From contig VRMN01000011.1 in the NCBI GenBank assembly GCA_008690995.1, positions 248,001 to 312,000 on the forward strand: a stretch of 64,000 nt of DNA. The letters run 5' to 3'. The notes beneath the pieces were generated by a model, which was not told where the DNA came from, searched no databases, and saw nothing but the letters and a program-made list of their open reading frames with translations. A program made the translations under genes and the position numbers. Source of the stretch: Porphyridium purpureum (lineage: Eukaryota). Below are positions 42,671-64,000 of this stretch, one piece after another. Within the stretch, counting starts at the first letter, position 1. Every line of letters starts with the position of its first letter.

Positions 42671-42709
42671 CTCCCACGCAGCGACAACTTTTCGTCATGC
42701 CTTCCACCT

Positions 42710-45700: not shown

Positions 45701-46987
45701 AATAATTGTTTTGAGCATGACATCACCCATCAATGAAACTTCAACATGTTCCCCGTTGGCAACAGTAACAAGTGATTCATCAGAAGGTCTTTCATTCATT
45801 AGAATAGACCTATCCCAAGTGATATGTCTGTCCGATCCAGAATCGAACATCCATTTGTGCGACTTGTGCTTGTGGGGCACAACAGAGACACAGATGGCAT
45901 AGATGGAAGTGGTGGCTTTATTGATTGGTGCAGGGGTCGCTGGGGGGCTAATCATGCGGATATCCAGAGAAGGGCCTTTTGGCACCACGCCCCTTCCCGC
46001 AACGCTATTCGCGTAGGCCTCCCACGACATCCAACCTGGCTCAATGGCTGCCTTTGCCGCCGGAGCCGGTGGTTTCGTCACCTTGGTTTTTACCTGAACC
46101 ACATTCACCCGCGCATTCGGCTTTCCGATGCCGCGTTTCACTGCCTCCGGGTCTGCTGCGCCACTCGCACCAGCAGCCTTGTCGCGCAAGTCATTCTTGC
46201 GCTTAAAGCAACGCTTCGTCTCGTGCCCAACCTTGTGGCAGTAGCCACACTTCAGGTTCTCCTTGACGAGTGCCGTCTTCACGACACCCGCTGAGCGATC
46301 ACGCTGCTGTTGCTGCGGACGCTGGGACACCGCCATTGCGATGGGCGGGGGCTCATCTGCCAACGTGCGCTCGAGCGCTTTTCCGGCCTCCAGCTGGAGC
46401 AGTTGCAGCCGAGCTGCGGAGACCGTGGGCGCCGAATGCAGCAGGTAGTCCTTCGACCCCTGAAACTCTTTGCGGAGCCCGATCACCAGATAACGCACGA
46501 CATGGTCCTCGGGAACTTGCTCACCGATCGAGACAAGCTTGTCCCACAGACCGATTCCGCGATCCAAGTACTCGGCCATTGCCTCGTTCTTGTTCTGGAC
46601 AATGCGCTCCAGCGCCATGCGAAACGCGAACTTCTGCGCCGACAGTTGATCGTGCGCATAATTCGCCACCGCGGACCAACCGTCCGCCGACGACTTATCG
46701 CGGACGAGACGGTCGTACCTGTTCTCCAAGACCCCGGACAGAAAGAACTGTCCCGCCAGGTCCGCATCGTCCCACTCTTCTGCCGTCATCCCGGTAGTTG
46801 CACGCGACGACGACGATGGGCGAACGACCATCCCCGCAACGACGGGCCACAGCTTCACCACACGCAACGCGAGCTTCGTGCGGCGTGCCCAAATGTCGTA
46901 ATTCTCGCCATTGAACTTTTCCACGCCGTTCGCAAGCGCGGACAGCTTCGACGCATCAAACGTAAACGCCATCGCGTCTAGGCTCAT
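42710..46987 (-). CDS. Copia Gag-Pol polyprotein (gag, CCHC, PR, IN, RT, RNaseH), inner copy
   Basis: CGYCHKVGHETKRC, WMFDSGS, HRRLGH..C..C, RSDKGGEF..NGMAER, YGLKQA, YVDD, RPDI, RSKHIDVR, ADFLTK. Confidence 0.96.
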   Translation of the reverse strand: MSLDAMAFTFDASKLSALANGVEKFNGENYDIWARRTKLALRVVKLWPVVAGMVVRPSSSSRATTGMTAEEWDDADLAGQFFLSGVLENRYDRLVRDKSSADGWSAVANYAHDQLSAQKFAFRMALERIVQNKNEAMAEYLDRGIGLWDKLVSIGEQVPEDHVVRYLVIGLRKEFQGSKDYLLHSAPTVSAARLQLLQLEAGKALERTLADEPPPIAMAVSQRPQQQQRDRSAGVVKTALVKENLKCGYCHKVGHETKRCFKRKNDLRDKAAGASGAADPEAVKRGIGKPNARVNVVQVKTKVTKPPAPAAKAAIEPGWMSWEAYANSVAGRGVVPKGPSLDIRMISPPATPAPINKATTSIYAICVSVVPHKHKSHKWMFDSGSDRHITWDRSILMNERPSDESLVTVANGEHVEVSLMGDVMLKTIIQDKFNDLRLENVLLIESTPINLLSTKVAARKGCVFKHDDSSSVLHFGSDGPVLAVGDGDLMIKLSAARINAITASNKFELFHRRLGHPGLAGLKNTQNCVQGIPADLKVPDEYHCVICQKAKGTRTPFKKRKLNSISAVPGEVLHTDVCGPLTPSSFDDHRYFLVVVDECSSLSVVHLLERKSEAGEMLLRTLKYLETTLGAKAKRVRSDKGGEFASLYVQRHLQDSGITWENTSAYTPELNGMAERMNRTLLEKVRSLLFDSNLPLENWSNALLTANYLRNRISNNRGKTPIEIAFRQRPDLSNLRIYGSRAFVHIPKQLRGKLETRSAIGCLVGYGNVHSVYRILLSDGTVVESRNVTFDESVVGIDVHEHEIHDSEYFSNFDKIVEELFPKDFSKSFDEKSQIASKNFETDSTRQMDDRSQEYSISNEIGETFLEKVQNNSKDLGFQKAPNGNFGNTEDDESQDSGYVANQFVGIISTVSEPRSVEEALKGDFSEQWLEALNRELESLTGNCTWELVDRPQDRIPVRCKWVFKIKYNVNGQIDRFKCRLVAKGFTQKPGLDYDEVFSPVVRHNTIRTVLAVAAARKLKIRLFDVVTAFLNGELHEEIFMEQPPGFVHEGGKVLKLRKAIYGLKQASRAWNQVLVQALKEINFSESTADPCLFSKGPNGPYIMIYVDDLVFIGEDEVTSNEVLLHLQGKFEVRDLGQVVKQKFAGYTLDYDQRNGIIRLNQSLYVQTILERFGMESANPRKLPMEKDTKWYTATAEPCKMPYMELVGALMYLCTCTRPDISFAVGVLARSMANANESHWNAAKGVLRYLKGTINYGLQFSSNGNSDLIGYVDSDYASDLRTRRSTTGYAFTINGSVVSWKSRLQPTVALSTTEAEYMALSDACKEAQWFQYLMEFLGFKSKSIPMFCDNDAALKLSENPIVHERSKHIDVRKHYARECQQRGIVKAIYIRTSDQAADFLTKVVPREMFLKCKTLLGVACLENSR

Positions 46988-46991
46988 AACC

Positions 46992-47316
46992 TATTAAAAG
47001 GTCTGATGTATCGGGGAGTCTTTGTGACTTGTCACTAACGCAGTTGCGTGTCCCCTTCGTCGCCCTTGCAACTAACCTTACCTTCGTCATCCGGGGACTC
47101 CGAGCCTCGGCCATCGCTAAGCTCTTCATATAGGCAATCGTAGTGCTTTCACTAGTGAGATTGCCAACTGTACCTCCAGGGCAAAAACCCTTATTTACTA
47201 TAAGTTGGAGAAATACAGAAAGTTGGAGAAATACAGAAAGTTGGAGCTGAAACATTCCCCATGGTATTACTACTTTACCTGGGGAGGGAATCTACCGAAA
47301 CCCTGGATTCATAACA
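46992..47316 (-). repeat. 5' LTR of inner A copy (325 bp)
   Basis: Followed on the minus strand by PBS GGTTATGAGCCTAG. Confidence 0.93.
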
Positions 47317-47438
47317 TGGCCGAGGCTCGGAGTCCCCGGATGACGAAGGTAAGGTTAGTTGCAAGGGCGACGAAGGGGACACGCAACTGCGTTAGTGACA
47401 AGTCACAAAGACTCCCCGATACATCAGACCTTTTAATA

Positions 47439-47452
47439 GGTTATGAGCCCAG
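47439..47452 (+). promoter_or_regulatory. Half-tRNA(iMet) primer-binding site (Hemivirus/Drosophila copia type)
   Basis: GGTTATGAGCCCAG is complementary to the anticodon arm CUGGGCUCAUAACC of tRNA-iMet. Confidence 0.8.
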
Positions 47453-50400
47453 ACGCGATGGCGTTTACGTTTGATGCGTCGAAGCTGTCCGCGCTTGCGA
47501 ACGGCGTGGAAAAGTTCAATGGCGAGAATTACGACATTTGGGCACGCCGCACGAAGCTCGCGTTGCGTGTGGTGAAGCTGTGGCCCGTCGTTGCGGGGAT
47601 GGTCGTTCGCCCATCGTCGTCGTCGCGTGCAACTACCGGGATGACGGCAGAAGAGTGGGACGATGCGGACCTGGCGGGACAGTTCTTTCTGTCCGGGGTC
47701 TTGGAGAACAGGTACGACCGTCTCGTCCGCGATAAGTCGTCGGCGGACGGTTGGTCCGCGGTGGCGAATTATGCGCACGATCAACTGTCGGCGCAGAAGT
47801 TCGCGTTTCGCATGGCGCTGGAGCGCATTGTCCAGAACAAGAACGAGGCAATGGCCGAGTACTTGGATCGCGGAATCGGTCTGTGGGACAAGCTTGTCTC
47901 GATCGGTGAGCAAGTTCCCGAGGACCATGTCGTGCGTTATCTGGTGATCGGGCTCCGCAAAGAGTTTCAGGGGTCGAAGGACTACCTGCTGCATTCGGCG
48001 CCCACGGTCTCCGCAGCTCGGCTGCAACTGCTCCAGCTGGAGGCCGGAAAAGCGCTCGAGCGCACGTTGGCAGATGAGCCCCCGCCCATCGCAATGGCGG
48101 TGTCCCAGCGTCCGCAGCAACAGCAGCGTGATCGCTCAGCGGGTGTCGTGAAGACGGCACTCGTCAAGGAGAACCTGAAGTGTGGCTACTGCCACAAGGT
48201 TGGGCACGAGACGAAGCGTTGCTTTAAGCGCAAGAATGACTTGCGCGACAAGGCTGCTGGTGCGAGTGGCGCAGCAGACCCGGAGGCAGTGAAACGCGGC
48301 ATCGGAAAGCCGAATGCGCGGGTGAATGTGGTTCAGGTAAAAACCAAGGTGACGAAACCACCGGCTCCGGCGGCAAAGGCAGCCATTGAGCCAGGTTGGA
48401 TGTCGTGGGAGGCCTACGCGAATAGCGTTGCGGGAAGGGGCGTGGTGCCAAAAGGCCCTTCTCTGGATATCCGCATGATTAGCCCCCCAGCGACCCCTGC
48501 ACCAATCAATAAAGCCACCACTTCCATCTATGCCATCTGTGTCTCTGTTGTGCCCCACAAGCACAAGTCGCACAAATGGATGTTCGATTCTGGATCGGAC
48601 AGACATATCACTTGGGATAGGTCTATTCTAATGAATGAAAGACCTTCTGATGAATCACTTGTTACTGTTGCCAACGGGGAACATGTTGAAGTTTCATTGA
48701 TGGGTGATGTCATGCTCAAAACAATTATTCAAGACAAGTTTAATGACTTGCGTCTTGAAAATGTTTTGTTGATCGAAAGCACACCCATAAATCTCCTTTC
48801 GACAAAGGTCGCAGCGAGAAAGGGCTGTGTCTTCAAACACGATGATAGTTCATCTGTTTTGCATTTTGGGTCAGATGGGCCCGTCCTAGCGGTTGGGGAT
48901 GGTGATTTAATGATCAAACTATCCGCCGCTAGAATAAATGCAATCACAGCTTCAAATAAGTTTGAGCTATTTCACCGTCGACTTGGTCATCCTGGACTTG
49001 CTGGTCTGAAAAATACGCAAAATTGTGTACAGGGAATTCCCGCGGACTTAAAAGTTCCGGATGAATACCATTGTGTGATTTGCCAAAAGGCAAAGGGAAC
49101 ACGAACTCCCTTTAAGAAGCGGAAATTGAATTCCATTTCGGCGGTTCCGGGAGAAGTCCTTCATACTGATGTATGCGGACCACTCACTCCTTCGAGTTTT
49201 GACGACCATCGATATTTTCTAGTTGTCGTCGACGAATGCTCAAGTTTGAGTGTCGTCCACTTGCTCGAGCGAAAAAGTGAAGCGGGTGAAATGTTACTGC
49301 GCACACTTAAATATCTCGAAACGACTCTTGGTGCAAAGGCAAAAAGAGTTCGGTCCGACAAAGGTGGCGAATTCGCAAGCCTTTATGTGCAAAGGCATCT
49401 CGAAGACTCTGGAATTACTTGGGAAAATACCTCTGCTTACACGCCAGAACTTAATGGTATGGCTGAACGCATGAATCGGACATTACTCGAAAAGGTTCGA
49501 AGCTTATTGTTTGATAGTAATCTACCTTTGGAAAATTGGAGTAATGCTTTGTTGACTGCGAATTATTTGCGAAATCGCATTTCAAATAATCGCGGGAAAA
49601 CGCCGATAGAAATTGCATTCAGGCAAAGGCCAGATCTCAGCAATCTCAGAATCTACGGATCGAGAGCGTTTGTTCATATTCCTAAGCAATTGCGAGGAAA
49701 ACTAGAAACAAGATCTGCAATTGGATGCTTGGTCGGTTATGGAAATGTCCATTCCGTTTATCGCATTCTTCTATCGGATGGCACGGTCGTTGAAAGTCGA
49801 AATGTCACTTTCGATGAGTCTGTCGTTGGAATAGATGTTCATGAACATGAAATCCACGATTCGGAATATTTTTCCAACTTCGATAAAATTGTCGAAGAGT
49901 TGTTTCCAAAAGATTTCTCGAAGTCGTTTGATGAAAAGTCTCAAATCGCGTCAAAAAATTTTGAAACAGATTCCACTCGACAAATGGATGATCGCAGTCA
50001 GGAATATTCTATTTCAAATGAAATCGGAGAAACGTTTCTGGAAAAAGTTCAGAATAATTCGAAAGATTTAGGGTTCCAAAAGGCTCCAAATGGAAACTTT
50101 GGGAATACTGAGGATGACGAAAGTCAAGACAGTGGATATGTCGCAAATCAATTCGTTGGAATAATTTCCACCGTTTCTGAACCTCGGTCAGTCGAAGAAG
50201 CACTAAAGGGTGACTTCTCTGAGCAATGGCTGGAAGCTCTGAATAGAGAATTGGAATCTCTCACTGGCAAATGCACGTGGGAGCTCGTCGATCGTCCACA
50301 GGACCGAATTCCTGTCAGATGCAAATGGGTTTTTAAGATCAAATATAATGTCAACGGACAAATTGATCGGTTCAAGTGTCGACTTGTCGCAAAAGGTTTC

Positions 50401-51720
50401 ACTCAGAAACCTGGTTTGGACTACGACGAAGTGTTCAGCCCTGTTGTGCGACACAACACTATTCGAACGGTCCTGGCAGTAGCAGCTGCAAGAAAGTTGA
50501 AAATTCGACTTTTCGATGTGGTGACTGCGTTTCTCAATGGAGAACTTCATGAAGAAATTTTCATGGAACAGCCTCCTGGATTCGTACATGAAGGAGGAAA
50601 AGTCCTGAAACTGCGTAAAGCAATCTATGGATTGAAGCAGGCATCTCGAGCTTGGAATCAAGTTCTTGTGCAAGCACTTAAAGAAATCAATTTTTCCGAA
50701 AGTACGGCAGATCCTTGTCTGTTTTCTAAGGGTCCAAATGGTCCGTATATCATGATTTACGTCGATGACTTGGTCTTCATAGGTGAAGACGAAGTTACTT
50801 CAAATGAAGTGCTTCTGCATTTGCAAGGCAAGTTTGAAGTCAGGGATCTTGGGCAAGTGGTCAAGCAAAAATTTGCCGGCTACACTCTTGATTATGATCA
50901 AAGGAATGGCATTATCAGACTTAATCAAAGCTTGTATGTCCAAACCATCCTGGAAAGGTTCGGAATGGAATCGGCGAATCCAAGGAAGCTTCCCATGGAA
51001 AAGGATACGAAGTGGTATACTGCTACTGCAGAACCATGCAAGATGCCTTACATGGAACTCGTGGGAGCACTAATGTATTTGTGCACTTGCACGCGTCCGG
51101 ATATTTCCTTCGCCGTGGGAGTGCTTGCACGATCAATGGCAAATGCCAATGAATCCCATTGGAATGCGGCAAAGGGAGTGCTGCGATATCTTAAAGGAAC
51201 CATAAATTATGGTCTCCAATTTAGCTCAAATGGCAACTCCGACCTAATTGGTTACGTTGATTCAGACTATGCTAGTGATCTTCGAACGCGAAGGTCAACC
51301 ACCGGATATGCTTTCACGATCAATGGATCAGTTGTCTCCTGGAAATCCAGGCTACAACCAACTGTGGCGCTGTCCACAACCGAAGCAGAGTACATGGCTC
51401 TCTCGGATGCATGTAAAGAAGCCCAGTGGTTTCAATATCTCATGGAATTCCTAGGATTCAAGTCGAAATCGATTCCAATGTTTTGTGACAATGATGCTGC
51501 ACTGAAACTGAGTGAGAACCCGATTGTGCACGAAAGGTCGAAGCACATTGACGTGAGAAAGCACTATGCTCGCGAATGTCAGCAACGGGGAATAGTCAAG
51601 GCTATTTACATTCGCACATCAGATCAGGCAGCAGATTTCCTAACCAAAGTGGTTCCTCGAGAAATGTTTTTGAAATGCAAAACCTTATTGGGTGTTGCTT
51701 GTCTTGAAAATTCGAGATAG
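47443..51720 (+). CDS. Copia Gag-Pol polyprotein, outer copy
   Basis: Same motifs as the inner copy; three amino-acid differences spotted (L/P, Q/E, N/K). Confidence 0.96.
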   Translation: MSPDAMAFTFDASKLSALANGVEKFNGENYDIWARRTKLALRVVKLWPVVAGMVVRPSSSSRATTGMTAEEWDDADLAGQFFLSGVLENRYDRLVRDKSSADGWSAVANYAHDQLSAQKFAFRMALERIVQNKNEAMAEYLDRGIGLWDKLVSIGEQVPEDHVVRYLVIGLRKEFQGSKDYLLHSAPTVSAARLQLLQLEAGKALERTLADEPPPIAMAVSQRPQQQQRDRSAGVVKTALVKENLKCGYCHKVGHETKRCFKRKNDLRDKAAGASGAADPEAVKRGIGKPNARVNVVQVKTKVTKPPAPAAKAAIEPGWMSWEAYANSVAGRGVVPKGPSLDIRMISPPATPAPINKATTSIYAICVSVVPHKHKSHKWMFDSGSDRHITWDRSILMNERPSDESLVTVANGEHVEVSLMGDVMLKTIIQDKFNDLRLENVLLIESTPINLLSTKVAARKGCVFKHDDSSSVLHFGSDGPVLAVGDGDLMIKLSAARINAITASNKFELFHRRLGHPGLAGLKNTQNCVQGIPADLKVPDEYHCVICQKAKGTRTPFKKRKLNSISAVPGEVLHTDVCGPLTPSSFDDHRYFLVVVDECSSLSVVHLLERKSEAGEMLLRTLKYLETTLGAKAKRVRSDKGGEFASLYVQRHLEDSGITWENTSAYTPELNGMAERMNRTLLEKVRSLLFDSNLPLENWSNALLTANYLRNRISNNRGKTPIEIAFRQRPDLSNLRIYGSRAFVHIPKQLRGKLETRSAIGCLVGYGNVHSVYRILLSDGTVVESRNVTFDESVVGIDVHEHEIHDSEYFSNFDKIVEELFPKDFSKSFDEKSQIASKNFETDSTRQMDDRSQEYSISNEIGETFLEKVQNNSKDLGFQKAPNGNFGNTEDDESQDSGYVANQFVGIISTVSEPRSVEEALKGDFSEQWLEALNRELESLTGKCTWELVDRPQDRIPVRCKWVFKIKYNVNGQIDRFKCRLVAKGFTQKPGLDYDEVFSPVVRHNTIRTVLAVAAARKLKIRLFDVVTAFLNGELHEEIFMEQPPGFVHEGGKVLKLRKAIYGLKQASRAWNQVLVQALKEINFSESTADPCLFSKGPNGPYIMIYVDDLVFIGEDEVTSNEVLLHLQGKFEVRDLGQVVKQKFAGYTLDYDQRNGIIRLNQSLYVQTILERFGMESANPRKLPMEKDTKWYTATAEPCKMPYMELVGALMYLCTCTRPDISFAVGVLARSMANANESHWNAAKGVLRYLKGTINYGLQFSSNGNSDLIGYVDSDYASDLRTRRSTTGYAFTINGSVVSWKSRLQPTVALSTTEAEYMALSDACKEAQWFQYLMEFLGFKSKSIPMFCDNDAALKLSENPIVHERSKHIDVRKHYARECQQRGIVKAIYIRTSDQAADFLTKVVPREMFLKCKTLLGVACLENSR

Positions 51721-51759
51721 AGGTGGAAGGCATGACGAAAAGTTGTCGCTGCGTGGGAG

Positions 51760-52084
51760 TGTTATGAATCCAGGGTTTCGGTAGATTCCCTCCCCAGGTA
51801 AAGTAGTAATACCATGGGGAATGTTTCAGCTCCAACTTTCTGTATTTCTCCAACTTTCTGTATTTCTCCAACTTATAGTAAATAAGGGTTTTTGCCCTGG
51901 AGGTACAGTTGGCAATCTCACTAGTGAAAGCACTACGATTGCCTATATGAAGAGCTTAGCGATGGCCGAGGCTCGGAGTCCCCGGATGACGAAGGTAAGG
52001 TTAGTTGCAAGGGCGACGAAGGGGACACGCAACTGCGTTAGTGACAAGTCACAAAGACTCCCCGATACATCAGACCTTTTAATA
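51760..52084 (+). repeat. 3' LTR of outer A copy (325 bp), with an 18-bp tandem repeat at 51830-51874
   Basis: TGTTATGAATCC...TTTTAATA; CTCCAACTTTCTGTATTT x2.5. Confidence 0.93.
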
Positions 52085-52701: not shown

Positions 52702-55700
52702 TGTCGCTACCGAGGTATGTGGGTACAGTTGCCTGCGAGATAAGATAGCGGCCGGTCTGGCAAACCTGTGGCGACAGTGGTAGAGAGAGAGAGAGAGAGT
52801 GGACAGAGAGTAGTAAAGAGGACTTATAGTTCCCAGCCCATGGTAGCGGGTGAGAGCCCCCCAAAGCTGACTACTCGTCCACACGGAAGATAGCAACAAC
52901 ATTGAATTCAATCCGTTGCGTGGATTGTCTTCGGGGAGAAGGAAGGAATATTCCTATCACAAGGAGAAAACAAAGAGAACTTTCGCCCTCTGGGCAGGCC
53001 TGTGTAGGCACAGGATGTCTCAGTTAAGCGGATCGGTTCTATCCACCCGCGTGCTAGAGGCACGCGAGTTGACGGAAGAGTACAAAGCACAAATGGCAGA
53101 CAAGGACACGGCGGAGATCTTGGAGTCCCTTCAGGTTATGTTCACCGGCGAGATCATCAAGAATCTGGGGCCTGTCGGCCAGTTCTCATTCTACAGGTGG
53201 CTTGTAGACAAAGGAGTCACGATTCCTGAGAAAGACCATGGTGGGAACATAATCCCTGTTCTTTTCCGCCTTTTACCATTGTTGTCAGTCAGCCAGCGGG
53301 ATCCGGGATCCACTTCTAATGTGCAGGCTACAGTCGAGGTGGGGAGTATGGAAATCCAATCTGACAACGACAGGTCCGACGTGCCATACACTGATGGTAC
53401 ATCTCAAGGAGCGCGCGTTGCTATGAGCAAAAGCGAGGAAACCTTCATGAGACGCTACAGTGCATTCACCAAGGCATATCAGAGTGTAGATTCAAAGTTC
53501 TACGGTACCGACGAGGAAAATTTCGCCGCATGGCGAATGCAACTCGTAAATCATTTAGCTCTACACAATCTGGATGATCAGTACACTGCACAGGTGATCC
53601 AAGCCTGTCTCGCAGGCGATGCTCTTACGTTTTATCTTGGGACGTATGTTGACGAAGATTTGACAAAGTTCACCATAGCAGATGTTCTGGTGGGCTTAAG
53701 GGACCACTTTTACACCATCGAGAAGCTTGAACGCCTGCAGGAGCAGTGGGAAAAGGCAAACTTCGCGGAATTCCAGGCTAACAATTCCAATATCTCTGAA
53801 GTGGAAAATTTTAAGTCTTTGACCCAAAGACTCAAAAGAATCCAGCCAAATTTGAAAAAACCATACAGATCCCATGAAATGCTACGTGACAAGTATAAGC
53901 AAATCATGTTCAGACATCCTGTATACGAGCGCCTCGTCATGACCCCGCTGCCAACATCGGCTGACGCACTATGCAGCAAAATTGAAGCCTTGCTTCTGCA
54001 TATGCAACCCAGTACAGTCTCGCCAAAGCCGCAGCTTGCTTTCACTGCGCAGCAGACGTCAAGGGCACCTATGGCTCAGCCAAATCACTCGGTGACTCTG
54101 TATCAAGAGCGATACAGGCGTTCGCATGCAAAACCGCAGGCTAATCGGGCAAGATCTACTCCTCGACCGATTAGCATCGCATCCGCCAGCAATCCTCGTA
54201 CGGCACACGGCACACAGCTTCTTTGCGACATTTGCCAATCCGAAAAACATTTTCGGCGGTTCTGCCCCGACAAGGAAGCCAAAAGGAAATTTTATACTGC
54301 GAATTCAAACTACATGGTGGCAGATTTTCTAGGCTCCGACTCTTCTTCGGGTGCAGACGCAAGCGACAGCACCGACGATGTCACCCACACAGACCTCGTT
54401 TGGCTTTCGCCAAGTCTTGTTCTTTTTCAACATGACACCGCTTTTGTTATTGTCGACAGCGGCGCTAGCGGTGGAAACTTAGTGGGTGAACGATTCTGTC
54501 AAGCCCGACAAACCGTCCAAGTTACAGCCCCGCCAAGACGCGTAAAAATGGGCACAAGTGTCTTCGACACTCGCGGTCAAGCCAAAATTGTCATGCTAGA
54601 CATAGGTGGAGCAAAGCTCGAATTCTTTGCTGATGTCATACAACTTGACATCCCACCACTTCTTGGATGGCGCGAGCAAAAGGCGCGACACATGACACTG
54701 GACGCGGGCGCCGGCATATTAACGGCCCTTGCCGACAGCGAACAGCTCAACTTTAGGGTCCACACAATTGCTGGACTCCCTTGCATTTTACTTCCAAATC
54801 CAGAAAATCCAGATTCGATCAAAGAGCAACGTGATGATATAGTCCTGTTCACTGCTACAGAATTGCGCAGATTACACGTGCACTTTGGGCACGCACATCT
54901 CGACAAAATCCGCGATCTGTTGCAGCGCAGTGGTCAACGTCTGACTTCTGCCGAAATTCGCTGGTATGCAGATATCGTACAGAAGTGCAAAGCTTGCCAA
55001 TTCTACGCGGATGTACCACGGCGCCCCATTGTGGCCATGCCAGTCAACCCTTTCTTCAACCGCGATATCGCCATAGACACTGTATACTTCGACGGCCTCG
55101 CTGTGCTACACATTGTGTGCAAAGGAACCAAATATGCCAGGAATCCTGTTTTACGACGCACGGATGCGGTAACCGTCATCAGTACGTTCTATACTTCTTG
55201 GATCACCATCTTTGGCATTCCGGCCACATTATCCATGGACCGCGGTACTGAGTTTCTGAATGCAACTTTACTCGAATTCTGTGATGGACTCGGCATTGTG
55301 ATGCGTCCAGCGGCGACTGCAGCAGCCTGGTCGATAGGTGTCGTGGAACGACACCATAAGCCCCTGAAAACTGTGTACTTTCGCTTGAAAACAACATTCC
55401 CAGACCGCGATTGCGAATTATTGCTCGCACAAGCAGAATTTGCACTGAATGCCACGCTTGGCAACCGCGACACATGTCCATTTTTACTGGTCTTCGGTCA
55501 ATTACCCGTGTTCCCGCTTGGCACAGTCCAGGACCAACACAAAATGACCACAGACCGCCATATGGCTATGGAAGTCGCGCGTAGAACGACCGAAGGTATC
55601 ATTGCTACCAGGCGCATTCGCGAGGCAACGCACACAAGCGTTTCAGAAAGCGCACCAGCTTTGCTGAGCCGTGGAGACCGGGTGCTGTTCTGGCGCCCAA

Positions 55701-57977
55701 GTGAGAGAGCTTGGGTCGGACCCGCGACCGTGGTCCATGTACACGGAGATGCGAAAACGGTAAAAGTTGAATACAAAACGCGGAACTACCACCCAGCTCT
55801 CCACCAAGTCAAATTGTTCGTCGCGGATCAAGTGCTATGGGCCGACGAGACTGAGACTTTCTCCAAAATTCTGCAAGTATCAGAACATTCACTCAGAAGA
55901 AAATGTGACTTTACGATATCGCGCGCCAAAGAAATCGATGGATGGCATGCAAAGGGCGTAGTGGAAGCCATTCGCACGACAGAGCGCGCGAATCTAGACA
56001 CGCGGTGGGTGGACTCCATCAAACTTTCAGATGGAAAAGAGTTCCCGAAATCACGTCTCGCCTTGCGAGAGTTTGCAAAATTGCAACCACATGGTTCCAT
56101 GCTTCGAGACTCACCTACGACATCACGATGGACTGTGCGCGTTCTGCTCTCAGTAGCACTTAATCAATCATGGTCCATATCATCCTCGGACGTCGAACAA
56201 GCCTTTCTTCAGAGCCAGCCTCTGAAACGTCGCGTTTTGGTGCAACCTCCAAAAGAAGCTGGTCTACCATCTGGTGTCCTCTGGCTTCTGAAGAAAGCCG
56301 CCTACGGTCTGGTGGATGCTGCGTACATCTGGTACGAGTCTCTCCGCGACGTGCTCGTCAACAAAATGCAAATGAAAGAGTCCATGGTAGACCCGTGCTT
56401 ATTTGTTGCGAACGAGGGTGCATGCACAACCCAAGTCGACGATATCTTAACCGTGGGCACGCCCCAATTTCTCGAAGCTCAAAAAGAAATTCGCAAGTAT
56501 CTACAGCTCCATCGAGAAAAACGTGAGAAGTTCATTTTCAACGGAGCCCAGCTCACAGTCAAGGAGAACTGTGTCAGTATTGATTTACAAGCGTATATCG
56601 AGAAATCTCGCATTGTGGCAGTGAGAATCACCACTTATAGTGACTTCCAGCGCTTCCGCGGCCAACTGCTATGGCTTGCTGCCAATTCGAGACCAGACTT
56701 AGCGTATCCTGCTGCACAACTCTCGCAAATCTCACAAGACATGTTCGACCATAAGGTGTACAAAGAGTTAGTAGCCCAAGCGCGGGGTGCAGTCTGCACA
56801 ATGCCATATTTGCACTTCAACCGCCTTCACGGCACCGTGGCAATTCAAGTATTTGCGGACGCCAGTTTCGCAAACAATGTTGACTTGAGCAGCCAGCTCG
56901 GCTTTATCATCTGTCTCGCGGACAGCCAAGGCCATTATAATATTGTGCACTGGCGCTCGGGAAAATCCCGCCGTGTTGTCAAATCGACTCTCGCAGCCGA
57001 GACGCTCGCAGTCATCGACGCATTCGACCACGCCGGTGCAGTGAAGCATATGCTCCAGGAACTAGGAATTCCCAGCCCGGAAGTTATTCTTTACACGGAC
57101 AATCGATCCGTATTTGACGCCATGTCCAAGCGCACGGCCTGCACCGAGAAAGCCGTACAGATATCTGTCGCCATCCTGCGACAAGCATTGCAAGAAGCAG
57201 CGCTCACCAAAATCGGACTTCTGTTGTCTGCTGACAATCCAGCCGATGCATTGACCAAAGCGCGCGGCAACTCTGAGCTAGACTCGCTCCTGCGTGCTGA
57301 AGTCTATCACCCTAAGGTTGTGGAATGGTTTGAAGTGAAAAAGTAAAGTACACTGCACTTTATGGGTGTTCACTTACACACCAATATAGATTCTGACGGA
57401 AATTGAACTGTTCCGTGGGTCTGAAGGAAGGTGAACAGGAAGCAACAGTTTTCGTCGATTACGCTGTCTGTCGTCGTGTCCCACGCGGTGGTTACGTGTT
57501 ACAAGCCAAATGCGCTTCGCCCACAAGCTTGTGCGGGCATGAAGGGCAACGCGTGAGGGTTTGATGTTTTATTCTTTTTCTTTGTTTGTTTGAGTCTGTT
57601 GAATTCAGCAATTTTCGAGTGCGTGTTTTTGTCCTGAGAAGGTTTTTCCGCCGTGCTGATTTGAATTTGTTTCTTCTATTCTAAGTACTCCATTTCGTTG
57701 TCCAAGACTCACGTTGATGTAACAATTCCGTGTCGCCTCGGTTGATGCGCTCATGCCACAAAAGGAAAAGGGTTGTGTGTCGCTACCGAGGTATGTGGGT
57801 ACAGTTGCCTGCGAGATAAGATAGCGGCCGGTCTGGCAAACCTGTGGCGACAGTGGTAGAGAGAGAGAGAGAGAGTGGACAGAGAGTAGTCAAGAGGACT
57901 TATAGTTCCCGGCCCATGGTAGCGGGTGAGAGCCCCCCAAAGCTGACTACTCGTCCACACGGAAGATAGCAACAACA
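52702..57977 (+). mobile_element. GalEa-like Copia LTR retrotransposon (element B), complete
   Basis: 200-bp TG...CA LTRs (52702-52901, 57778-57977; two mismatches seen; internal (AG)9); TSD GACTC at 52697-52701 and 57978-57982; PPT AAAAGGAAAAGGG at 57760-57772. Confidence 0.92.
53015..57346 (+). CDS. Single Gag-Pol polyprotein of element B (PR-IN-RT-RH order)
   Basis: CDICQSEKHFRRFC, VDSGAS, LHVHFGH..CKAC, MDRGTEF..VERHH, YGLVDA, QVDD, ADASFAN..SQLG, WRSGKSRRVVKSTLAAE, NPADALTK. Confidence 0.92.
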   Translation: MSQLSGSVLSTRVLEARELTEEYKAQMADKDTAEILESLQVMFTGEIIKNLGPVGQFSFYRWLVDKGVTIPEKDHGGNIIPVLFRLLPLLSVSQRDPGSTSNVQATVEVGSMEIQSDNDRSDVPYTDGTSQGARVAMSKSEETFMRRYSAFTKAYQSVDSKFYGTDEENFAAWRMQLVNHLALHNLDDQYTAQVIQACLAGDALTFYLGTYVDEDLTKFTIADVLVGLRDHFYTIEKLERLQEQWEKANFAEFQANNSNISEVENFKSLTQRLKRIQPNLKKPYRSHEMLRDKYKQIMFRHPVYERLVMTPLPTSADALCSKIEALLLHMQPSTVSPKPQLAFTAQQTSRAPMAQPNHSVTLYQERYRRSHAKPQANRARSTPRPISIASASNPRTAHGTQLLCDICQSEKHFRRFCPDKEAKRKFYTANSNYMVADFLGSDSSSGADASDSTDDVTHTDLVWLSPSLVLFQHDTAFVIVDSGASGGNLVGERFCQARQTVQVTAPPRRVKMGTSVFDTRGQAKIVMLDIGGAKLEFFADVIQLDIPPLLGWREQKARHMTLDAGAGILTALADSEQLNFRVHTIAGLPCILLPNPENPDSIKEQRDDIVLFTATELRRLHVHFGHAHLDKIRDLLQRSGQRLTSAEIRWYADIVQKCKACQFYADVPRRPIVAMPVNPFFNRDIAIDTVYFDGLAVLHIVCKGTKYARNPVLRRTDAVTVISTFYTSWITIFGIPATLSMDRGTEFLNATLLEFCDGLGIVMRPAATAAAWSIGVVERHHKPLKTVYFRLKTTFPDRDCELLLAQAEFALNATLGNRDTCPFLLVFGQLPVFPLGTVQDQHKMTTDRHMAMEVARRTTEGIIATRRIREATHTSVSESAPALLSRGDRVLFWRPSERAWVGPATVVHVHGDAKTVKVEYKTRNYHPALHQVKLFVADQVLWADETETFSKILQVSEHSLRRKCDFTISRAKEIDGWHAKGVVEAIRTTERANLDTRWVDSIKLSDGKEFPKSRLALREFAKLQPHGSMLRDSPTTSRWTVRVLLSVALNQSWSISSSDVEQAFLQSQPLKRRVLVQPPKEAGLPSGVLWLLKKAAYGLVDAAYIWYESLRDVLVNKMQMKESMVDPCLFVANEGACTTQVDDILTVGTPQFLEAQKEIRKYLQLHREKREKFIFNGAQLTVKENCVSIDLQAYIEKSRIVAVRITTYSDFQRFRGQLLWLAANSRPDLAYPAAQLSQISQDMFDHKVYKELVAQARGAVCTMPYLHFNRLHGTVAIQVFADASFANNVDLSSQLGFIICLADSQGHYNIVHWRSGKSRRVVKSTLAAETLAVIDAFDHAGAVKHMLQELGIPSPEVILYTDNRSVFDAMSKRTACTEKAVQISVAILRQALQEAALTKIGLLLSADNPADALTKARGNSELDSLLRAEVYHPKVVEWFEVKK

Positions 57978-58144
57978 GACTCACAGGGATCCATTCCGGT
58001 ATTTCGGGGAGAAAGTTTTTGGAGCCAATATTTAGAGGTTGAAACTGAAAGAGGTGTGCACAGAGTGTCGAAACAGGCTTGGGAGTGTTGCGATGGGTGT
58101 GTTTCGTGCGTACAGTTTTGTTTGAATAGGAATGGGAAAAAGCG

Positions 58145-58937
58145 TGGAATTTTAGGGTTCCGCCCCGAGAGACGCCGTAGGGTTTTGAGTACAAAACCCT
58201 AGAAAGTTCTATGATGAAAGATTGTTCGAGAAGCGTGATGATCTCGGACCTGCGAAATGTTTGTCATTGTCGTTTTGTGTGGCCTTGTGCAAAGGTCAAA
58301 GGCCGGCCGAAGCTTCTGGATTCGTTCTTGACGCGCCCTCCCGGCCATTTTCCGGATACGTGGCCGGCTGTGGTTGCGAGTTGTGGAACGAATCAAAACC
58401 TGTGGTGGAAATTCGTCCTGTTGGAGAAATTTGTTCTCCCGTCCTTGCTGGAAAGAGCAAGGACGAAGGGTATAAAAGGACGAAGGGGCAAGCTGGTTCC
58501 CAGGAATTTCCAGGTCAAGGTAGAAGAAGAGGTAAGGGCAAATAGAATAAAAAGAGAATTGGTTAGTTGGATTGAGGCAGTCGTTGGAAGACTTGGGTTG
58601 GATTTGCGGGAGAGGCACGCTAGCGTGTTGTGCGAGCGGATATCGGTCTGGAGTGTTTTTAAAAAGGCAGCTGGGGTTTAAAAGTACCTTCCATCACCCT
58701 TCACTTGTCAAGACCGGTCCACTCCCTCTCGTAGTCCCCTATAAGTTGAATTTTCTGTCCTCTCTTCCTTTCTAGCCACTTTTCTCTGATTGTCCTGCTT
58801 GTCCTTCCGTTCGTTTCGGTGTGTCGGTTCGTCATCGGTTTGTCAGTTTCCGGGGTGTGGTGGTTTCCAGTTCCTGTTATCGGTGAAGCGGTCCGGTTTT
58901 GTTGATTCGGTTACAAAGCGGAGAGGGAGAAATTCCA
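58145..58937 (+). repeat. 5' LTR of element C
   Basis: 8-bp terminal inverted repeat; TATAAAAG at 58471; direct repeat of 63109-63901. Confidence 0.93.
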
Positions 58938-58939
58938 AG

Positions 58940-58957
58940 TGGTATCATCGCCCGGTT
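58940..58957 (+). promoter_or_regulatory. Primer-binding site, probably for the 3' end of tRNA-iMet
   Basis: TGGTATCATCGCCCGGTT, two nt after the LTR end. Confidence 0.8.
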
Positions 58958-58968
58958 GTTTGGAGAGA

Positions 58969-59916
58969 ATGGAAAGCCATGAAATGGAAATGAATGTCCC
59001 GCAGGAGAATGCGGCATGGATTGAGGCAGCTAATCAGCTGCATGCGCGCATTGCGGGACAGGAGATGATGATGGCACAAGTGCAGGAAGCGAATCGTAAC
59101 CTCCATGAAATGATGCAAGTTTTGTTGCGCCAGCAGACCGTGGCGTCTGGGTCTGGTGACAACGATCGTGCCATGGCCGCGTTAATTGGGCGCAGTTTGA
59201 GAAAGTTTGATGGTCAGCGTGACAAGCTCGTTGTCAATGAATGGCTGATGCGAATGAAGAGCGACCTGGATATCTGCATGCCCGCAGGTGCTTTGGACTC
59301 GCAGAAAGTGATTGTTGCAAGTCGCTTTTTCGAGAGGGACGCAGCGCTGCTTTGGGCAGCTCGTCCGGAGGAGCAGAGAAAGGGCCTTGCAGAGGCCGGA
59401 TGGGATGCGTTCGCAAACTTCGTGCGCACAGCGTTTGAGCCGCCGCAGGCGCATTTGACAGCGCGCACCAATCTGTATCAGTTGAAGCAAGGGAAAATGA
59501 CGGTCGCAGAATTTGAGCAGAATCTCAGGATGACAGCGTTGTCAGTTGAAGATGTGACAGATGCAGAACTGAACACCATCTTCACGCTGGGCTTGAAGGA
59601 GAAACTGCGTATTGAGGTGGCCCGTCAGGACACAAGGACCTTGGAAGAATCACTGAAAGTTGCGTTGGCAGCTGAGCAGGTTGCAAAGTTCGGAGGAGAT
59701 ATGAGTCAAGTGATCAAGAACTCGTCATCGACTCATAGCAGGGCGTTCTCGTCGCATTCTGGTAGCGCACCAATGGATTTGGGAGCCATGGACAAGCGGA
59801 AGTCTGGCAAGACCAAAGTGAAGTGTTACCATTGTGGAGAACGTGGACACATTAAGCCCAAATGCCCTAAATTGAAGGAGCGCTTGGCAGGTGGTCCGCC
59901 AGAGCCGGAAAACTAA
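58969..59916 (+). CDS. Gag of element C (Ty3/Gypsy Retrotrans_gag-like, CCHC knuckle)
   Basis: KFDGQRD..VNEWL, LKQGKMTVAEF, FTLGLK..LR, APMDLG, CYHCGERGHIKPKC. Confidence 0.88.
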   Translation: MESHEMEMNVPQENAAWIEAANQLHARIAGQEMMMAQVQEANRNLHEMMQVLLRQQTVASGSGDNDRAMAALIGRSLRKFDGQRDKLVVNEWLMRMKSDLDICMPAGALDSQKVIVASRFFERDAALLWAARPEEQRKGLAEAGWDAFANFVRTAFEPPQAHLTARTNLYQLKQGKMTVAEFEQNLRMTALSVEDVTDAELNTIFTLGLKEKLRIEVARQDTRTLEESLKVALAAEQVAKFGGDMSQVIKNSSSTHSRAFSSHSGSAPMDLGAMDKRKSGKTKVKCYHCGERGHIKPKCPKLKERLAGGPPEPEN

Positions 59917-59968
59917 GACCTCGAGAGCCAAGACAGGAGGAGATCTCGAGGGGAATGGAGCCTCCTGT
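59907..59968 (+). promoter_or_regulatory. Predicted -1 programmed ribosomal frameshift signal (slippery heptamer plus H-type pseudoknot)
   Basis: G_GAA_AAC just before the gag TAA; stem 1 CCTCGAGA/TCTCGAGG, stem 2 ACAGGAGG/CCTCCTGT; -1 frame open into pol. Confidence 0.8.
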
Positions 59969-62900
59969 AATGGGTGTTGTGGAAGGTGTTGCGCACGAGG
60001 GTGCGAGGTCAAGGCTCTTCTACAAACATGGGAAAGTGAGTGGTTCAAAAATCGACTTCTTGATTGACAGTGGAGCGTCGCATAATTTCCTGGGGTCCCG
60101 ATTCTTGGACGCAAGCGTAAAGTCCAGTTGCGATGAATGCATGGTCGAGCTTGCGGGAGGACAGAGAATGAAGGTGCACGGCCCCATTGTGCTTGCGGTG
60201 GACCTCGGTTTCTGGATAGGGAACGTCGAGTTTTATATCGGTCCCATTCGTATGGATGCCATCTTAGGGTGGAAATGGCTCAAGATGGTGAATCCTAAGA
60301 TTGATTGGCAGAAGGGACTGATGGAAACGAGGCCCGAGGGGAAGGAAATATGCACGTTGGAAAATGTTGAAGAAGTGGTTCCCGAGCTTGACGGGAAAAA
60401 TCAGAGCGTGGCTGCTTCGGAACACGAGTTGACTCACATGCCTATGCAAAGAGACTGTGAGACGTGTGTCGTGGCGAAGATAAAGCGACGCCCGGCCCGA
60501 AGGCTGGAGAAAGATGTCAGTGCATTGTCATTCAATGATGAAGTCGGAATTGACTTGGTGGAGCCTGGGCGAAATGTGAAGTCGGTAGATGGTTCAAAGT
60601 TTATTTTGACGCATATCGACAGAGCCACAGGATGGGTGACATTGGCGGGGCTACGTGCGAAAACCCACACGGCGGTTGCGGACGCTTGGAAAAGTGTGCA
60701 AGCCGGGAGAGGATGGCCGAAGGTTTTGCGAACGGATGATGGGAATGAGTTCAAGGGAGATGTGGGGAGACTGGTGCGTGAACACCTCATAAAGCACGAG
60801 GTGGGGATTCCGTACAGGCCAAACAGTCATGCTGAACAGGAGCGGTTTCACCACACGCTGAATCAGGGAATCCGTGCGAATCTTGTGCAGGCCGGACTCG
60901 GGAAGCGTTGGTTCATGCACGCCGCGCAGCATTTTGCGTTCATGACGAATAGACTTCACGTGGGCAGGAAGTCTGGAAAGACGCCGTTTGAATTACGACG
61001 TGGTGAAAAATGGTCGCCGAGAAATCTTAGTTTGCCATTCGGGTGCAAGGTGGTCTACAAAGATGATCAGCCTGACAATAAGTATGCACCGCGAGGAAAA
61101 GTTGGCATTCTCGTCGGCGTTGGAGAGCATCCGATGGCAATTTTGGTGCTTCCTCGGGATGACTGGACGAGTGAGACCCCAAAAGTAATTCGCACTCAGG
61201 ATTTTAAGGCATTTACCCATGAGTTCCCTTTAAAGGGAATTGAACGAGAGATGGTGAGCCTGAGCCAGCAGGAAGAGTTGCCAGAAGTGGACGAACCATC
61301 CGCGGTTGAAGCGGTGCAGGACTTGGATCGTCGTATCGATGCTCTCAGAGCTCGAGAAGCGGAGCTTGAGAAAGAGATCGAGGCATTGAAAGTGAGAGTG
61401 GTTGACGAGGAACGGGCAGCAGGCACGGGTGGTCCAGTGACGATCCCACAGTTGAACTTAACGACTTTGCTGAAAACTGGAGCGGCGTTAGCGTCTGAGC
61501 AAGGACGAGCCGCGATGGAAAAAGAAGTCAAATCCATGCTGAGATTTGGGGTATGGGATGAGAATCCCTTGACGCTGGAGGAGGCCCGGAGGCAACCTGG
61601 TGCTCGTTTCGTACGCACACATTTCATTTTCGGTCTGAAATTTGCTGAGATGCCGGAAGAATTTCGCAAGGTGAAGTGCCGCTTGGTGGCCGGGGGAAAC
61701 AGGATATGGGGGTCCGATGGAGCTGCGACGAATGACATTTTTGATTATGAGACGCCTGCTGGTTTGTCAGCTATCCGAATGATAATAGCTGTGGCTGCAA
61801 TTCTGGGCCTTCAGATTGTTAGTTTCGACATCAGCTCGGCATACCTCCATGCGGACCTGTCTGGGCCACCTACGTTTGCATACTTACCGCGTGAAATTTG
61901 TGATTCAAAAGACACAGTAGTCAGGCTGAGAAAGGCGCTGTATGGCTTGCCCAGGAGCGGCTCGGATTTCTCACAAGATGCTCGGAGGAGATTGCAAAAG
62001 TTCCAGTGGAAGCTCGTGCATGGTGAAAAGAATGTGTACGTCCGGAGAAATGCTGCAAGTTCGTCAGTTGCGTTGTTGGCTCTGTACGTGGATGATGGTC
62101 TATTAGCCTGTCGAGAGGAGGAACGCCCAGGAATCATCGAAGAATTGAAACAAGAGTTTCTCATAGAAAAAGCACCAGAACTATTGACGGAAGGAGGATC
62201 CTTGAGATTCCTGGGGACGAGCATTTCCCTCAAAAATGGGAGCGTGAGTTTGGCGAATCAAGAGTATCAAGATGTGGTCATTCGGGAATTTGAGCAGGAT
62301 ATTAGACGCGTATTGCGTGCCGTGAAGTCACCATCTGAGAAGCTAGATGGCGAGGAAGTTCTGAATTATCAAGTCATCTGGAAGACTTTGAAAGTAAGAG
62401 AACACGTCGGGAGGCTGATGTGGCTCGCCAGAACGGTTCGACCTGATATTGCGTATGCAGTCGGTATGATTGCCCGGTACGTTGACAAGTGGAATGTGGC
62501 AGCAGAAAGGCTGCTCGTACGAGTCGTGCAGTATTTGAAAACACCTCGGGAAGCATTGGAGTATCACGTGTTGGGGAATCTCAAGGAAGGCATCAGAATG
62601 GTGAACATTCTTGGATACACGGATGCTGACTTTGCTGGTTGTCCAGAGAGTCGTGTGTCGACTTCTGGAAGAGCAACGTACTTAGTTGCTGGAGATTACA
62701 AGTACCTAGTGGATTGGTCTTCAAGAAAGCAGCGTTTCGTGAGCTCGTCGACTTCAGAGTCGGAGCTGGCCGCCCTAGAGGAAACTGTGCAACTCTCGTT
62801 GTTTCCTGCATTGTCTTTCTTGCGAAGTATACGTGACGGAGAGTTCTCGGTGATTTTGATGTGTGACAATCAAGCTGTGATGCGAGCAATAGAGATGGGG

Positions 62901-63119
62901 TACTCGCCAAAGTTGCATCATATGGCGATAACCCGAGCAACAGATTTGGCCTGGTTGCATCAGGTGTGCGAAAAGCAGAAACTTGTGAAACTGGCATTTG
63001 TGAAGACGGACGAAAATGTGGCGGACTTAATGACCAAGGCCTTATTTCCGGAGGGCCACATTAAGTGCTGGGAGAAGTTACGCGTCCCTCAGACCGGAAG
63101 GAGGAGCGTGGAATTTTAG
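59913..63119 (+). CDS. Pol of element C (PR-IN-RT-RNaseH), in the -1 frame relative to gag; stop codon lies inside the 3' LTR
   Basis: FLIDSGASHNF..ILGWKWL....PKIDW; HELTHMP...C..C; RTDDGNEF..ER; LYGLPRSG, YVDD, RPDIAYAV, YTDADFAG, WSSRKQ, NVADLMTK. Confidence 0.9.
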   Translation, partial: LRPREPRQEEISRGMEPPVMGVVEGVAHEGARSRLFYKHGKVSGSKIDFLIDSGASHNFLGSRFLDASVKSSCDECMVELAGGQRMKVHGPIVLAVDLGFWIGNVEFYIGPIRMDAILGWKWLKMVNPKIDWQKGLMETRPEGKEICTLENVEEVVPELDGKNQSVAASEHELTHMPMQRDCETCVVAKIKRRPARRLEKDVSALSFNDEVGIDLVEPGRNVKSVDGSKFILTHIDRATGWVTLAGLRAKTHTAVADAWKSVQAGRGWPKVLRTDDGNEFKGDVGRLVREHLIKHEVGIPYRPNSHAEQERFHHTLNQGIRANLVQAGLGKRWFMHAAQHFAFMTNRLHVGRKSGKTPFELRRGEKWSPRNLSLPFGCKVVYKDDQPDNKYAPRGKVGILVGVGEHPMAILVLPRDDWTSETPKVIRTQDFKAFTHEFPLKGIEREMVSLSQQEELPEVDEPSAVEAVQDLDRRIDALRAREAELEKEIEALKVRVVDEERAAGTGGPVTIPQLNLTTLLKTGAALASEQGRAAMEKEVKSMLRFGVWDENPLTLEEARRQPGARFVRTHFIFGLKFAEMPEEFRKVKCRLVAGGNRIWGSDGAATNDIFDYETPAGLSAIRMIIAVAAILGLQIVSFDISSAYLHADLSGPPTFAYLPREICDSKDTVVRLRKALYGLPRSGSDFSQDARRRLQKFQWKLVHGEKNVYVRRNAASSSVALLALYVDDGLLACREEERPGIIEELKQEFLIEKAPELLTEGGSLRFLGTSISLKNGSVSLANQEYQDVVIREFEQDIRRVLRAVKSPSEKLDGEEVLNYQVIWKTLKVREHVGRLMWLARTVRPDIAYAVGMIARYVDKWNVAAERLLVRVVQYLKTPREALEYHVLGNLKEGIRMVNILGYTDADFAGCPESRVSTSGRATYLVAGDYKYLVDWSSRKQRFVSSSTSESELAALEETVQLSLFPALSFLRSIRDGEFSVILMCDNQAVMRAIEMGYSPKLHHMAITRATDLAWLHQVCEKQKLVKLAFVKTDENVADLMTKALFPEGHIKCWEKLRVPQTGRRSVEF

Positions 63120-63901
63120 GGTTCCGCCCCGAGAGACGCCGTAGGGTTTTGAGTACAAAACCCTAGAAAGTTCTATGATGAAAGATTGTTCGAGAAGCGT
63201 GATGATCTCGGACCTGCGAAATGTTTGTCATTGTCGTTTTGTGTGGCCTTGTGCAAAGGTCAAAGGCCGGCCGAAGCTTCTGGATTCGTTCTTGACGCGC
63301 CCTCCCGGCCATTTTCCGGATACGTGGCCGGCTGTGGTTGCGAGTTGTGGAACGAATCAAAACCTGTGGTGGAAATTCGTCCTGTTGGAGAAATTTGTTC
63401 TCCCGTCCTTGCTGGAAAGAGCAAGGACGAAGGGTATAAAAGGACGAAGGGGCAAGCTGGTTCCCAGGAATTTCCAGGTCAAGGTAGAAGAAGAGGTAAG
63501 GGCAAACAGAATAAAAAGAGAATTGGTTAGTTGGATTGAGGCAGTCGTTGGAAGACTTGGGTTGGATTTGCGGGAGAGGCACGCTAGCGTGTTGTGCGAG
63601 CGGATATCGGTCTGGAGTGTTTTTAAAAAGGCAGCTGGGGTTTAAAAGTACCTTCCATCACCCTTCACTTGTCAAGACCGGTCCACTCCCTCTCGTAGTC
63701 CCCTATAAGTTGAATTTTCTGTCCTCTCTTCCTTTCTAGCCACTTTTCTCTGATTGTCCTGCTTGTCCTTCCGTTCGTTTCGGTGTGTCGGTTCGTCATC
63801 GGTTTGTCAGTTTCCGGGGTGTGGTGGTTTCCAGTTCCTGTTATCGGTGAAGCGGTCCGGTTTTGTTGATTCGGTTACAAAGCGGAGAGGGAGAAATTCC
63901 A
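63109..63901 (+). repeat. 3' LTR of element C
   Basis: Follows PPT GGAAGGAGGAG; direct repeat of the 5' LTR. Confidence 0.93.
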
Positions 63902-64000
63902 AGAAAAGGCATCCAAAGTCTTGATTTCCATTGAAATCATCCTTAAGTACAGTCGGCTTTTCAGGGGCGTCATCACTACGCAGAGGAAGCGACCCTGGAA

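Follow-up and report, generated by a model that had tools for sequence, protein, structure and literature searches.

An intact, transcribed, multi-copy LTR retrotransposon of Porphyridium purpureum joins a Ty3/Gypsy-type Gag and protease (PR) to a Ty1/Copia-type integrase (IN), reverse transcriptase (RT) and RNase H (RH), an architecture that was probably gained when a deep-lineage Copia ancestor captured a Gypsy gag-protease block by recombination. The element lies in a 64,000-nucleotide stretch of contig VRMN01000011.1 (assembly GCA_008690995.1, positions 248,001 to 312,000, forward strand), which we call the window. A preliminary description made from the DNA letters had proposed a Gypsy/Copia chimera with its modules joined near 60320-60420. 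Per-domain Pfam and profile tests split as it had predicted. The boundary lies where it had been placed: the protease match stops at ~60330 and the zinc finger of the integrase begins at 60417. The PR-IN join is old, being common to at least five families, and did not arise recently in the present copy. As to direction, comparisons of sequences favour capture over retention. The parts of the element are as follows.

58138 to 58142, plus strand: left copy of the target site duplication (TSD), AAAAG, from the empty-site joint and from empty-site contigs in runs X9 and X13
58143 to 58939, plus strand: 5' LTR of 797 nt with CG...AG ends and TG...CA two bases inside, from mixed flanks at 58143 and 58939
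Parts of the 5' LTR, plus strand: U3 to ~58543, R at ~58544-58571 and U5 after it, from RNA ends and poly(A) reads
58940 to 58957, plus strand: primer binding site (PBS), starting TGGTATCA, directly abutting the LTR, from sequence
58969 to 59916, plus strand: gag, 315 aa, with a long N-terminal helix, a Ty3/PEG10-type capsid, PMDLG and one CCHC knuckle
59907 to 59913, plus strand: predicted -1 slippery heptamer G_GAA_AAC immediately 5' of the gag stop, from sequence and frames, its function being putative
59919 to 59968, plus strand: predicted H-type pseudoknot, from stem-folding z-scores
59871 to 63119, plus strand: pol open frame, 1082 aa, PR-IN-RT-RH, with its stop within the 3' LTR
60030 to 60330, plus strand: Gypsy-type aspartic protease (DSG ... 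ILG), from Pfam and profile comparisons
60417 to 61250, plus strand: Copia-type integrase of the deep-lineage type, with a short HHCC finger, D,D(35)E and an SH3-like part
61452 to 62480, plus strand: Copia reverse transcriptase (RVT_2, YVDD), from Pfam and trees
62613 to 63056, plus strand: Copia RNase H, from motifs and trees
63096 to 63106, plus strand: polypurine tract (PPT) of 11 purines abutting the 3' LTR, from sequence, also present in the sister family
63107 to 63903, plus strand: 3' LTR, 797 nt
63904 to 63908, plus strand: right TSD copy, AAAAG, from empty-site reads

The Gag, protease, IN and RT/RNase H motifs listed in the preliminary description were all found in the translations, and gag and pol are, as it had said, separate, frameshifted open frames, with pol overlapping gag in the -1 frame. 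Direct repeats at 58141-58939 and 63105-63903 have, as it had said, a single mismatch, which lies at 58543 (T) / 63507 (C). Within the LTR, 856 RNA molecules end at 58544, and poly(A) follows 58571 in 85 reads. The PBS pattern has one exact occurrence in the window, its remaining matches being at chance level; its partner is presumably the initiator-Met tRNA, a host gene that is not in the window. Pol ends only within the 3' LTR (63109-63119), whose first bases are thus coding as well.

The element belongs to a cluster of four retrotransposons in the window. An intact GalEa-like Copia element on the plus strand (52702-57977) has a single frame of 1491 codons, 200-nt LTRs that are 99% alike and an LLG-type protease. 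Two classical Copia copies, 99.9% identical, stand head to head on the minus (42344-47316) and plus (47316-52084) strands in a 4769-nt inverted repeat, and the second keeps just 123 nt of its 5' LTR. In the sequence of this pair (42344-52084), no usual tRNA 3'-end PBS follows the LTR.

To assign the domains, we compared them with Pfam families and with profiles built from the polyproteins of 5 Gypsy, 12 deep-lineage Copia and 14 classical Copia elements. In Pfam, Gag matched Retrotrans_gag (2e-9), Ty3_capsid (1.5e-8) and zf-CCHC, all above cut-off, and at E<=1 gave no match to Retrotran_gag_2, the mark of a Copia-type Gag. Pol matched RVT_2 (E 1.6e-18) and, weakly, SH3; Pfam found in it no RVT_1, no Pol_BBD (E<=1) and no chromodomain. 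The protease reached Asp_protease_2 and gag-asp_proteas below cut-off only, with no Pfam family above it, and its motif is ILG, not LLS. Among proteases, LLS versus ILG separates Copia from the others with 'very few exceptions', according to the available part of PMC2774666.

On the profiles, whose scores are biased in the direction found because the references were retrieved with the element itself (Pol was the query for the Copia rows, and this element or its sister was the query for four of the five Gypsy ones), the protease matched Gypsy at 97.2% (E 5e-11), deep Copia at 4.7% and classical Copia at 19.9%, and the integrase matched Gypsy at 4.1%, deep Copia at 100% (E 2e-45) and classical Copia at 99.7% (E 5e-26). 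On the same profiles Gag matched Gypsy at 95.8%, deep Copia at 5.5% and classical Copia at 94.3%, the last match being confined to residues 141-307, the C-terminal half and knuckle. The preliminary description had taken both the capsid and the protease features for Gypsy hallmarks. Pfam for Gag and the profile for the protease uphold this reading, and the C-terminal match to classical Copia suggests that Gag alone is less diagnostic of Gypsy than had been assumed.

Three lines of evidence on Gag are independent of the retrieval bias: Pfam, Atlas and Foldseek. In Atlas, all 10 of the 10 best named matches fell in one family or clan, the rows being Retrotrans_gag, Ty3_capsid, PEG10, PNMA and CCHC clusters. 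Foldseek on the Gag model (mean pLDDT 65) gave dArc, Ty3 and PEG10 as its top matches, with the Copia capsid at rank 45; VIA separated the candidates poorly, with PEG10 at Z 13.5 and the Copia capsid third at Z 11.4. The best PDB sequence match of Gag was the Copia VLP protein (E 3e-4); since it covers linker and knuckle only, we do not count it in favour of a Copia capsid. Matches to Gag or Gag-PR from outside Porphyridium were all RVT_1/Gypsy-RNaseH proteins (1 of 3 and 2 of 4), the rest coming from Porphyridium. By bit score, Gag stands nearer to another Porphyridium family (100 bits) than to a Gypsy match (65), whereas the protease stands nearer to Gypsy matches (47 and 45 bits) than to the Porphyridium families (22 and 27). 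No Gypsy donor of the Gag-PR block was identified among the sequences compared.

The integrase stands upstream of RT-RNaseH, and RT and RNase H group with Copia. RVT_2, the Copia integrase profiles and the RT-RH trees thus agree with the integrase-before-RT order and Copia-type enzymes of the preliminary description. With Ty3/Gypsy the element shares the Ty3-type Gag and ILG protease and not an RVT_1 RT or a Gypsy integrase. Classed by its enzymes, it is a Copia variant that departs from Copia in Gag, protease and termini.

Could the Gypsy look be profile noise, or convergence in a fast-evolving Gag and protease? The protease stays below Pfam cut-offs, some LLS-type proteases (P0100, P0115 and P0139) also weakly match Asp_protease_2 or gag-asp_proteas, and Gag overlaps the Copia profile. 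However, the protease is full-length on the Gypsy profile, spanning 96 columns compared with 37-45 for Copia, Gag passes the thresholds of two Gypsy families in at least four families of Porphyridium, and gag and pol are split by a -1 site in Gypsy style. We therefore regard noise or convergence as very improbable.

The gag-pol overlap carries a predicted frameshift signal. Gag ends ...PEN-stop on G_GAA_AAC, and the sister Gag likewise ends ...EN. An ideal slippery heptamer reads XXXYYYZ, from which G_GAA_AAC deviates at one position. The predicted pseudoknot begins 5 nt past the heptamer and has two compatible stems of 8 bp each (stem 1, 59919-26/59944-51; stem 2, 59933-40/59961-68). Each stem alone gives z -2.6 and the whole region z -3.15; one 51-nt sub-window gives just -0.76. 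PEG10 uses a -1 slip with a pseudoknot, and the -1 signal would have come along with the Gypsy block.

The element is real, active and lineage-wide, and it transposes as a unit, as the preliminary description had suggested. Its Pol cluster contains at least 12 full-length Pol proteins with distinct sequences, found among the 15 listed of 16 members. Over residues 40-460, Pol is 100% identical to a protein that its source labels as P. purpureum. Full-length Pol copies (1054 or 1181 aa), counted from protein clusters and reads and judged by size, with the sequence checked for P0003, occur under at least 17 accessions and on 7 P. purpureum scaffolds. The element stretch is present in 20 of the 24 listed sequencing runs (7 studies), 7 of which were examined by read placement. 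Two independent DNA contigs, of 4963 and 4227 nt, cross the PR-IN junction. Stranded reads gave a sense RNA depth of 358-479 across 59740-60809 and an antisense depth below 11, with sense assigned from the usual library orientation, in agreement with poly(A) reads. An empty site occurs in runs X24, X8, X9 and X13, so the insertion is polymorphic and recent; together with the open frames and sense RNA, this bears out the earlier view of an intact, recently active element. The LTR mismatch need not be a change after insertion, because both letters segregate among copies (700 of 1396 reads).

These data also bear on whether we are dealing with a nested insertion, a dead recombinant or an assembly artefact, as a position within a cluster of four retrotransposons might suggest. 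A single open frame runs through the junction, which is crossed by independent short-read contigs and RNA, the copies are spread over 7 scaffolds, and one LTR pair is accompanied by a TSD and an empty allele. The chance that the junction arose in any of these ways is negligible.

Over R-U5 (58550-58939), RNA depth is ~20x that of the internal region, and 2345 reads run from the LTR end into mixed flanks. Transcription into host DNA is likely driven from 3' or solo LTRs. Some minor RNA joints leave out the PBS (58886-58958; 7-25 reads) or most of pol (59971-62574; 14 reads); their ends are not GT-AG, and they may come from deleted copies.

The termini lie outside the positions first assigned. 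The preliminary description had placed the ends at the TG...CA dinucleotides, 58145 and 63901, which give no TSD. In reads of other samples the empty-site joint skips 5766 nt and leaves 5 shared letters. Mixed flanks precede 58143 (72 reads, agreement 0.38) and follow 58939 (2345 reads, agreement 0.36); 528 more reads diverge at 58940, as expected because some flanks begin with the next element letter. Single contigs in runs X8, X10, X13 and X19 break at the same two ends, 58143 and 58939. This end evidence comprises the best 13 of 103 and 11 of 69 loose-end rows, so that rare other ends are possible. From the empty-site joint, mixed flanks and contig breaks, we conclude that the element spans 58143-63903, with 797-nt LTRs, CG...AG ends and the TSD AAAAG. 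Reading the TSD as GAAAA or AAAA was ruled out by reads, and two 4-bp readings that this site alone allows were excluded by the flanks of other copies.

A perfect 8-bp inverted repeat, with a TG start and a CA end, lies exactly two bases inside the LTR termini, and the PBS and PPT adjoin the outer CG...AG ends. In the sister family, known from reads short of the integrated ends, the same PPT is followed by CA-TGGA. Retroviral and Ty3 integrases clip two-base cDNA extensions, and the layout of the element is that of a cDNA with such extensions. Ty1 integrase joins blunt ends, as stated in the part of PMC2939329 available. Because the CG...AG ends abut the PBS and PPT while TG...CA lies two bases inside, the integrase probably joins the full cDNA ends without a two-base clip. 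The 5-bp TSD fits the 4-6 bp of Copia, and CG...AG stands in place of Copia's TG...CA. Programs that search for LTRs would overlook the family or set its borders wrongly, since its ends lie outside TG...CA, and termini two bases outside that dinucleotide offer a natural test of why dinucleotide and clipping stay conserved.

To place the element among its relatives, we searched its Pol against 1.84 billion representatives with phmmer, which listed at least 150 relatives; 34 of these and 17 further proteins were scanned with Pfam, and 20 clusters were looked up. Four other Porphyridium families carry a Ty3-type Gag and ILG-like protease on RVT_2: P0004, with 65% Pol identity to the element, and P0067, P0069 and P0221/P0075, with 30-32%. 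Gag is above cut-off for two Gypsy Pfam families in at least four Porphyridium families. In 14 further IN-RT-RH relatives, whose protease motifs were labelled by eye, an LLS-like protease was clear in 11, loose in 2 and absent in 1, and ILG was found in 0 of 14. Element-like loci numbered 0 among 87 stretches in viral_contigs and 0 among 488 and 0 among 24 in metagenome_contigs; Gypsy references sought in viral_contigs yielded 0 of 1 and 1 of 80. One viral-collection contig (L001, 3012-10709) holds a Gypsy-type pol with segments that are methyltransferase-like by motif, inside pol and after the chromodomain. Between integrase and RT, P0004, P0070 and P0231 have a Myb-like domain (Pfam E 9e-5, 3e-5 and 0.014), and the window element has a coiled-coil-like stretch in the same place.

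A 73-row RT-RH tree made with a quick method split the deep lineage from 23 classical Copia rows at 100 and placed the five Gypsy-type Porphyridium families within one clade (94), itself nested in a clade (98, SH-aLRT) with P0074, P0076 and P0090. P0233 and P0234, cluster members of these neighbours, have LLS-like proteases. A second tree, of 29 rows with three Gypsy rows as its root, left out 3 rows that lacked an anchor. It united the five families and the LLS group in one clade (100/99), and the GalEa-like window neighbour, on a long branch, fell outside the RT-RH clade of the element. The RT-RH trees hold no named CoDi sequence, and GalEa is represented in them by one row, this neighbour, labelled by motif likeness. 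In approximately unbiased (AU) tests, neither a root on the Gypsy-type families' branch, whether with Gypsy (p=0.28) or with both Gypsy and GalEa (p=0.068), nor a monophyletic LLS group (p=0.33) was rejected.

The alternative is that an old Copia lineage retained an ancestral Gypsy-like Gag and ILG protease, and that other Copia elements evolved Retrotran_gag_2 and LLS. The AU result for the root (p=0.28) is compatible with this, as are the 'very few exceptions' to LLS allowed in the accessible text of PMC2774666; an LLG-type protease is found in the GalEa-like neighbour too, and for that reason ILG may be an old feature of Copia. However, the best trees place the families inside an LLS-bearing lineage (98 SH-aLRT with P0074; 100/99), and retention would call for LLS to have arisen several times independently, or for the root to be misplaced. 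A clear second swap in the same clade also stands against it, and we consider retention unlikely. Capture is the reading that we prefer: the RT-RH of the five families nests among LLS-protease elements, including the near neighbours P0074, P0233 and P0234, so their Gag-PR state is taken to be derived.

The second swap involves P0078, P0080 and P0087, which share the 94 clade; Retrotran_gag_2 and Pol_BBD occur in the longer members of their clusters, P0229, P0231 and P0230. The 5' half of P0230 scores 244 bits against the classical Copia of the window and 73 against this element; its 3' half scores 111 and 256. As gene models, P0229, P0230 and P0231 appear to form a mosaic of another kind, in which a classical Copia Gag-PR-IN precedes a deep-lineage RT-RNaseH and the crossover follows the integrase; the reciprocal scores of P0230 point to module swapping in this clade. 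One RT-RH lineage therefore carries three front ends in P. purpureum, which makes capture the simpler reading. A wider proposition, which we hold to be evenly balanced between true and false, is that Porphyridium harbours a lineage, active and so far undescribed, whose single deep Copia RT-RNaseH core bears three front ends (the original one; a gag-protease from Gypsy with the -1 signal; a classical Copia gag-protease-integrase), and that the present family integrates by unclipped ends, leaving CG...AG around an internal TG...CA. Capsid and enzymes could then be exchanged even between the two sides of the deepest LTR split. If so, the lineage would be invisible to pipelines that require TG...CA or discard mixed domains.

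In the replication cycle that we envisage, the LTR promoter gives full-length RNA, as observed. Gag would be made from the first frame and Gag-Pol through a predicted, pseudoknot-assisted -1 slip at G_GAA_AAC. The Gypsy-type capsid would package the RNA, and the Gypsy-type protease would free the Copia enzymes. RT would prime at the PBS and PPT, which abut the LTR ends, and integrase would then join the CG...AG cDNA ends, presumably unclipped, into a cut with a 5-bp stagger, matching the ends and TSD seen.

Copia and Gypsy are treated as separate gene pools. With a mosaic that is transcribed, polymorphic and present in several element families of an alga that can be cultured, packaging and maturation across superfamilies become testable. 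The literature searched, which lies outside subscription journals, Repbase and GyDB, yielded no description of a Copia lineage with a Gypsy Gag-PR or of such CG...AG ends; the available portions of PMC2806351 and PMC2836005 contain nothing on a Gypsy-Gag-PR/Copia layout. In the excerpted text of PMC6317226, REXdb dropped elements with chimeric signs as likely mispredictions, and recombination is discussed among Copia lineages only.

With classical Ty1/Copia (Pseudoviridae, branch-2), the element shares the GAG-PR-IN-RT-RH order, RVT_2, the RNase H motifs and a 5-bp TSD. It differs in its Ty3_capsid/Retrotrans_gag Gag, ILG protease, -1 split of gag and pol and CG...AG ends, and its IN-RT-RH falls in a separate deep clade (100 support). 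With the deep Copia lineage (P0074, P0085, P0086, P0093, P0100 and P0233, all metagenome or transcriptome proteins) it shares the HHCC finger, IN-RT-RH (IN E 2e-45) and tree position, whereas those members have an LLS-like protease and a Gag without a Gypsy Pfam match. This lineage may resemble dinoflagellate Copia elements. With Ty3/Gypsy (Metaviridae) of the chromovirus/PEG10 type, the element has in common the capsid family, PMDLG, a single knuckle, DSG...ILG...P.IDW and a predicted -1 slip with a pseudoknot; unlike them, it lacks RVT_1 and a chromodomain match, and its integrase lies 5' of RT and is not Gypsy-type.

PyRE10G of Porphyra yezoensis, reportedly described by Peddigari et al. 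in 2008 (PMID 18071621), is by title a red-algal Copia element with a Gypsy-like integrase domain, and at that level an earlier instance of mixed domains. The part of PMC3587641 available places it in GalEa, and Porphyridium is known to have GalEa elements (PMC3587641 and PMC5445492, both in part). On this partial account the Gypsy-like domain of PyRE10G is the integrase, whereas here the integrase is Copia-type and the RT-RH stands apart from that of the GalEa-like neighbour. Other non-canonical LTR ends appear in the available text on Troyka, with CG...CG ends and a 3-bp TSD (PMC12440569), and on TGTT/AACA elements (PMC5659011). Unlike these, as so described, our element keeps the TG...CA inverted repeat two bases inside, a 5-bp TSD and Copia order, and so does not fit Troyka, with its Gypsy domain order, CG...CG ends and 3-bp TSD. 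The Gmr1 clade, in the portion of PMC2774666 available, resembles the element in combining a Gypsy trait with Copia order; its enzymes are of Gypsy type, those of the element of Copia type.
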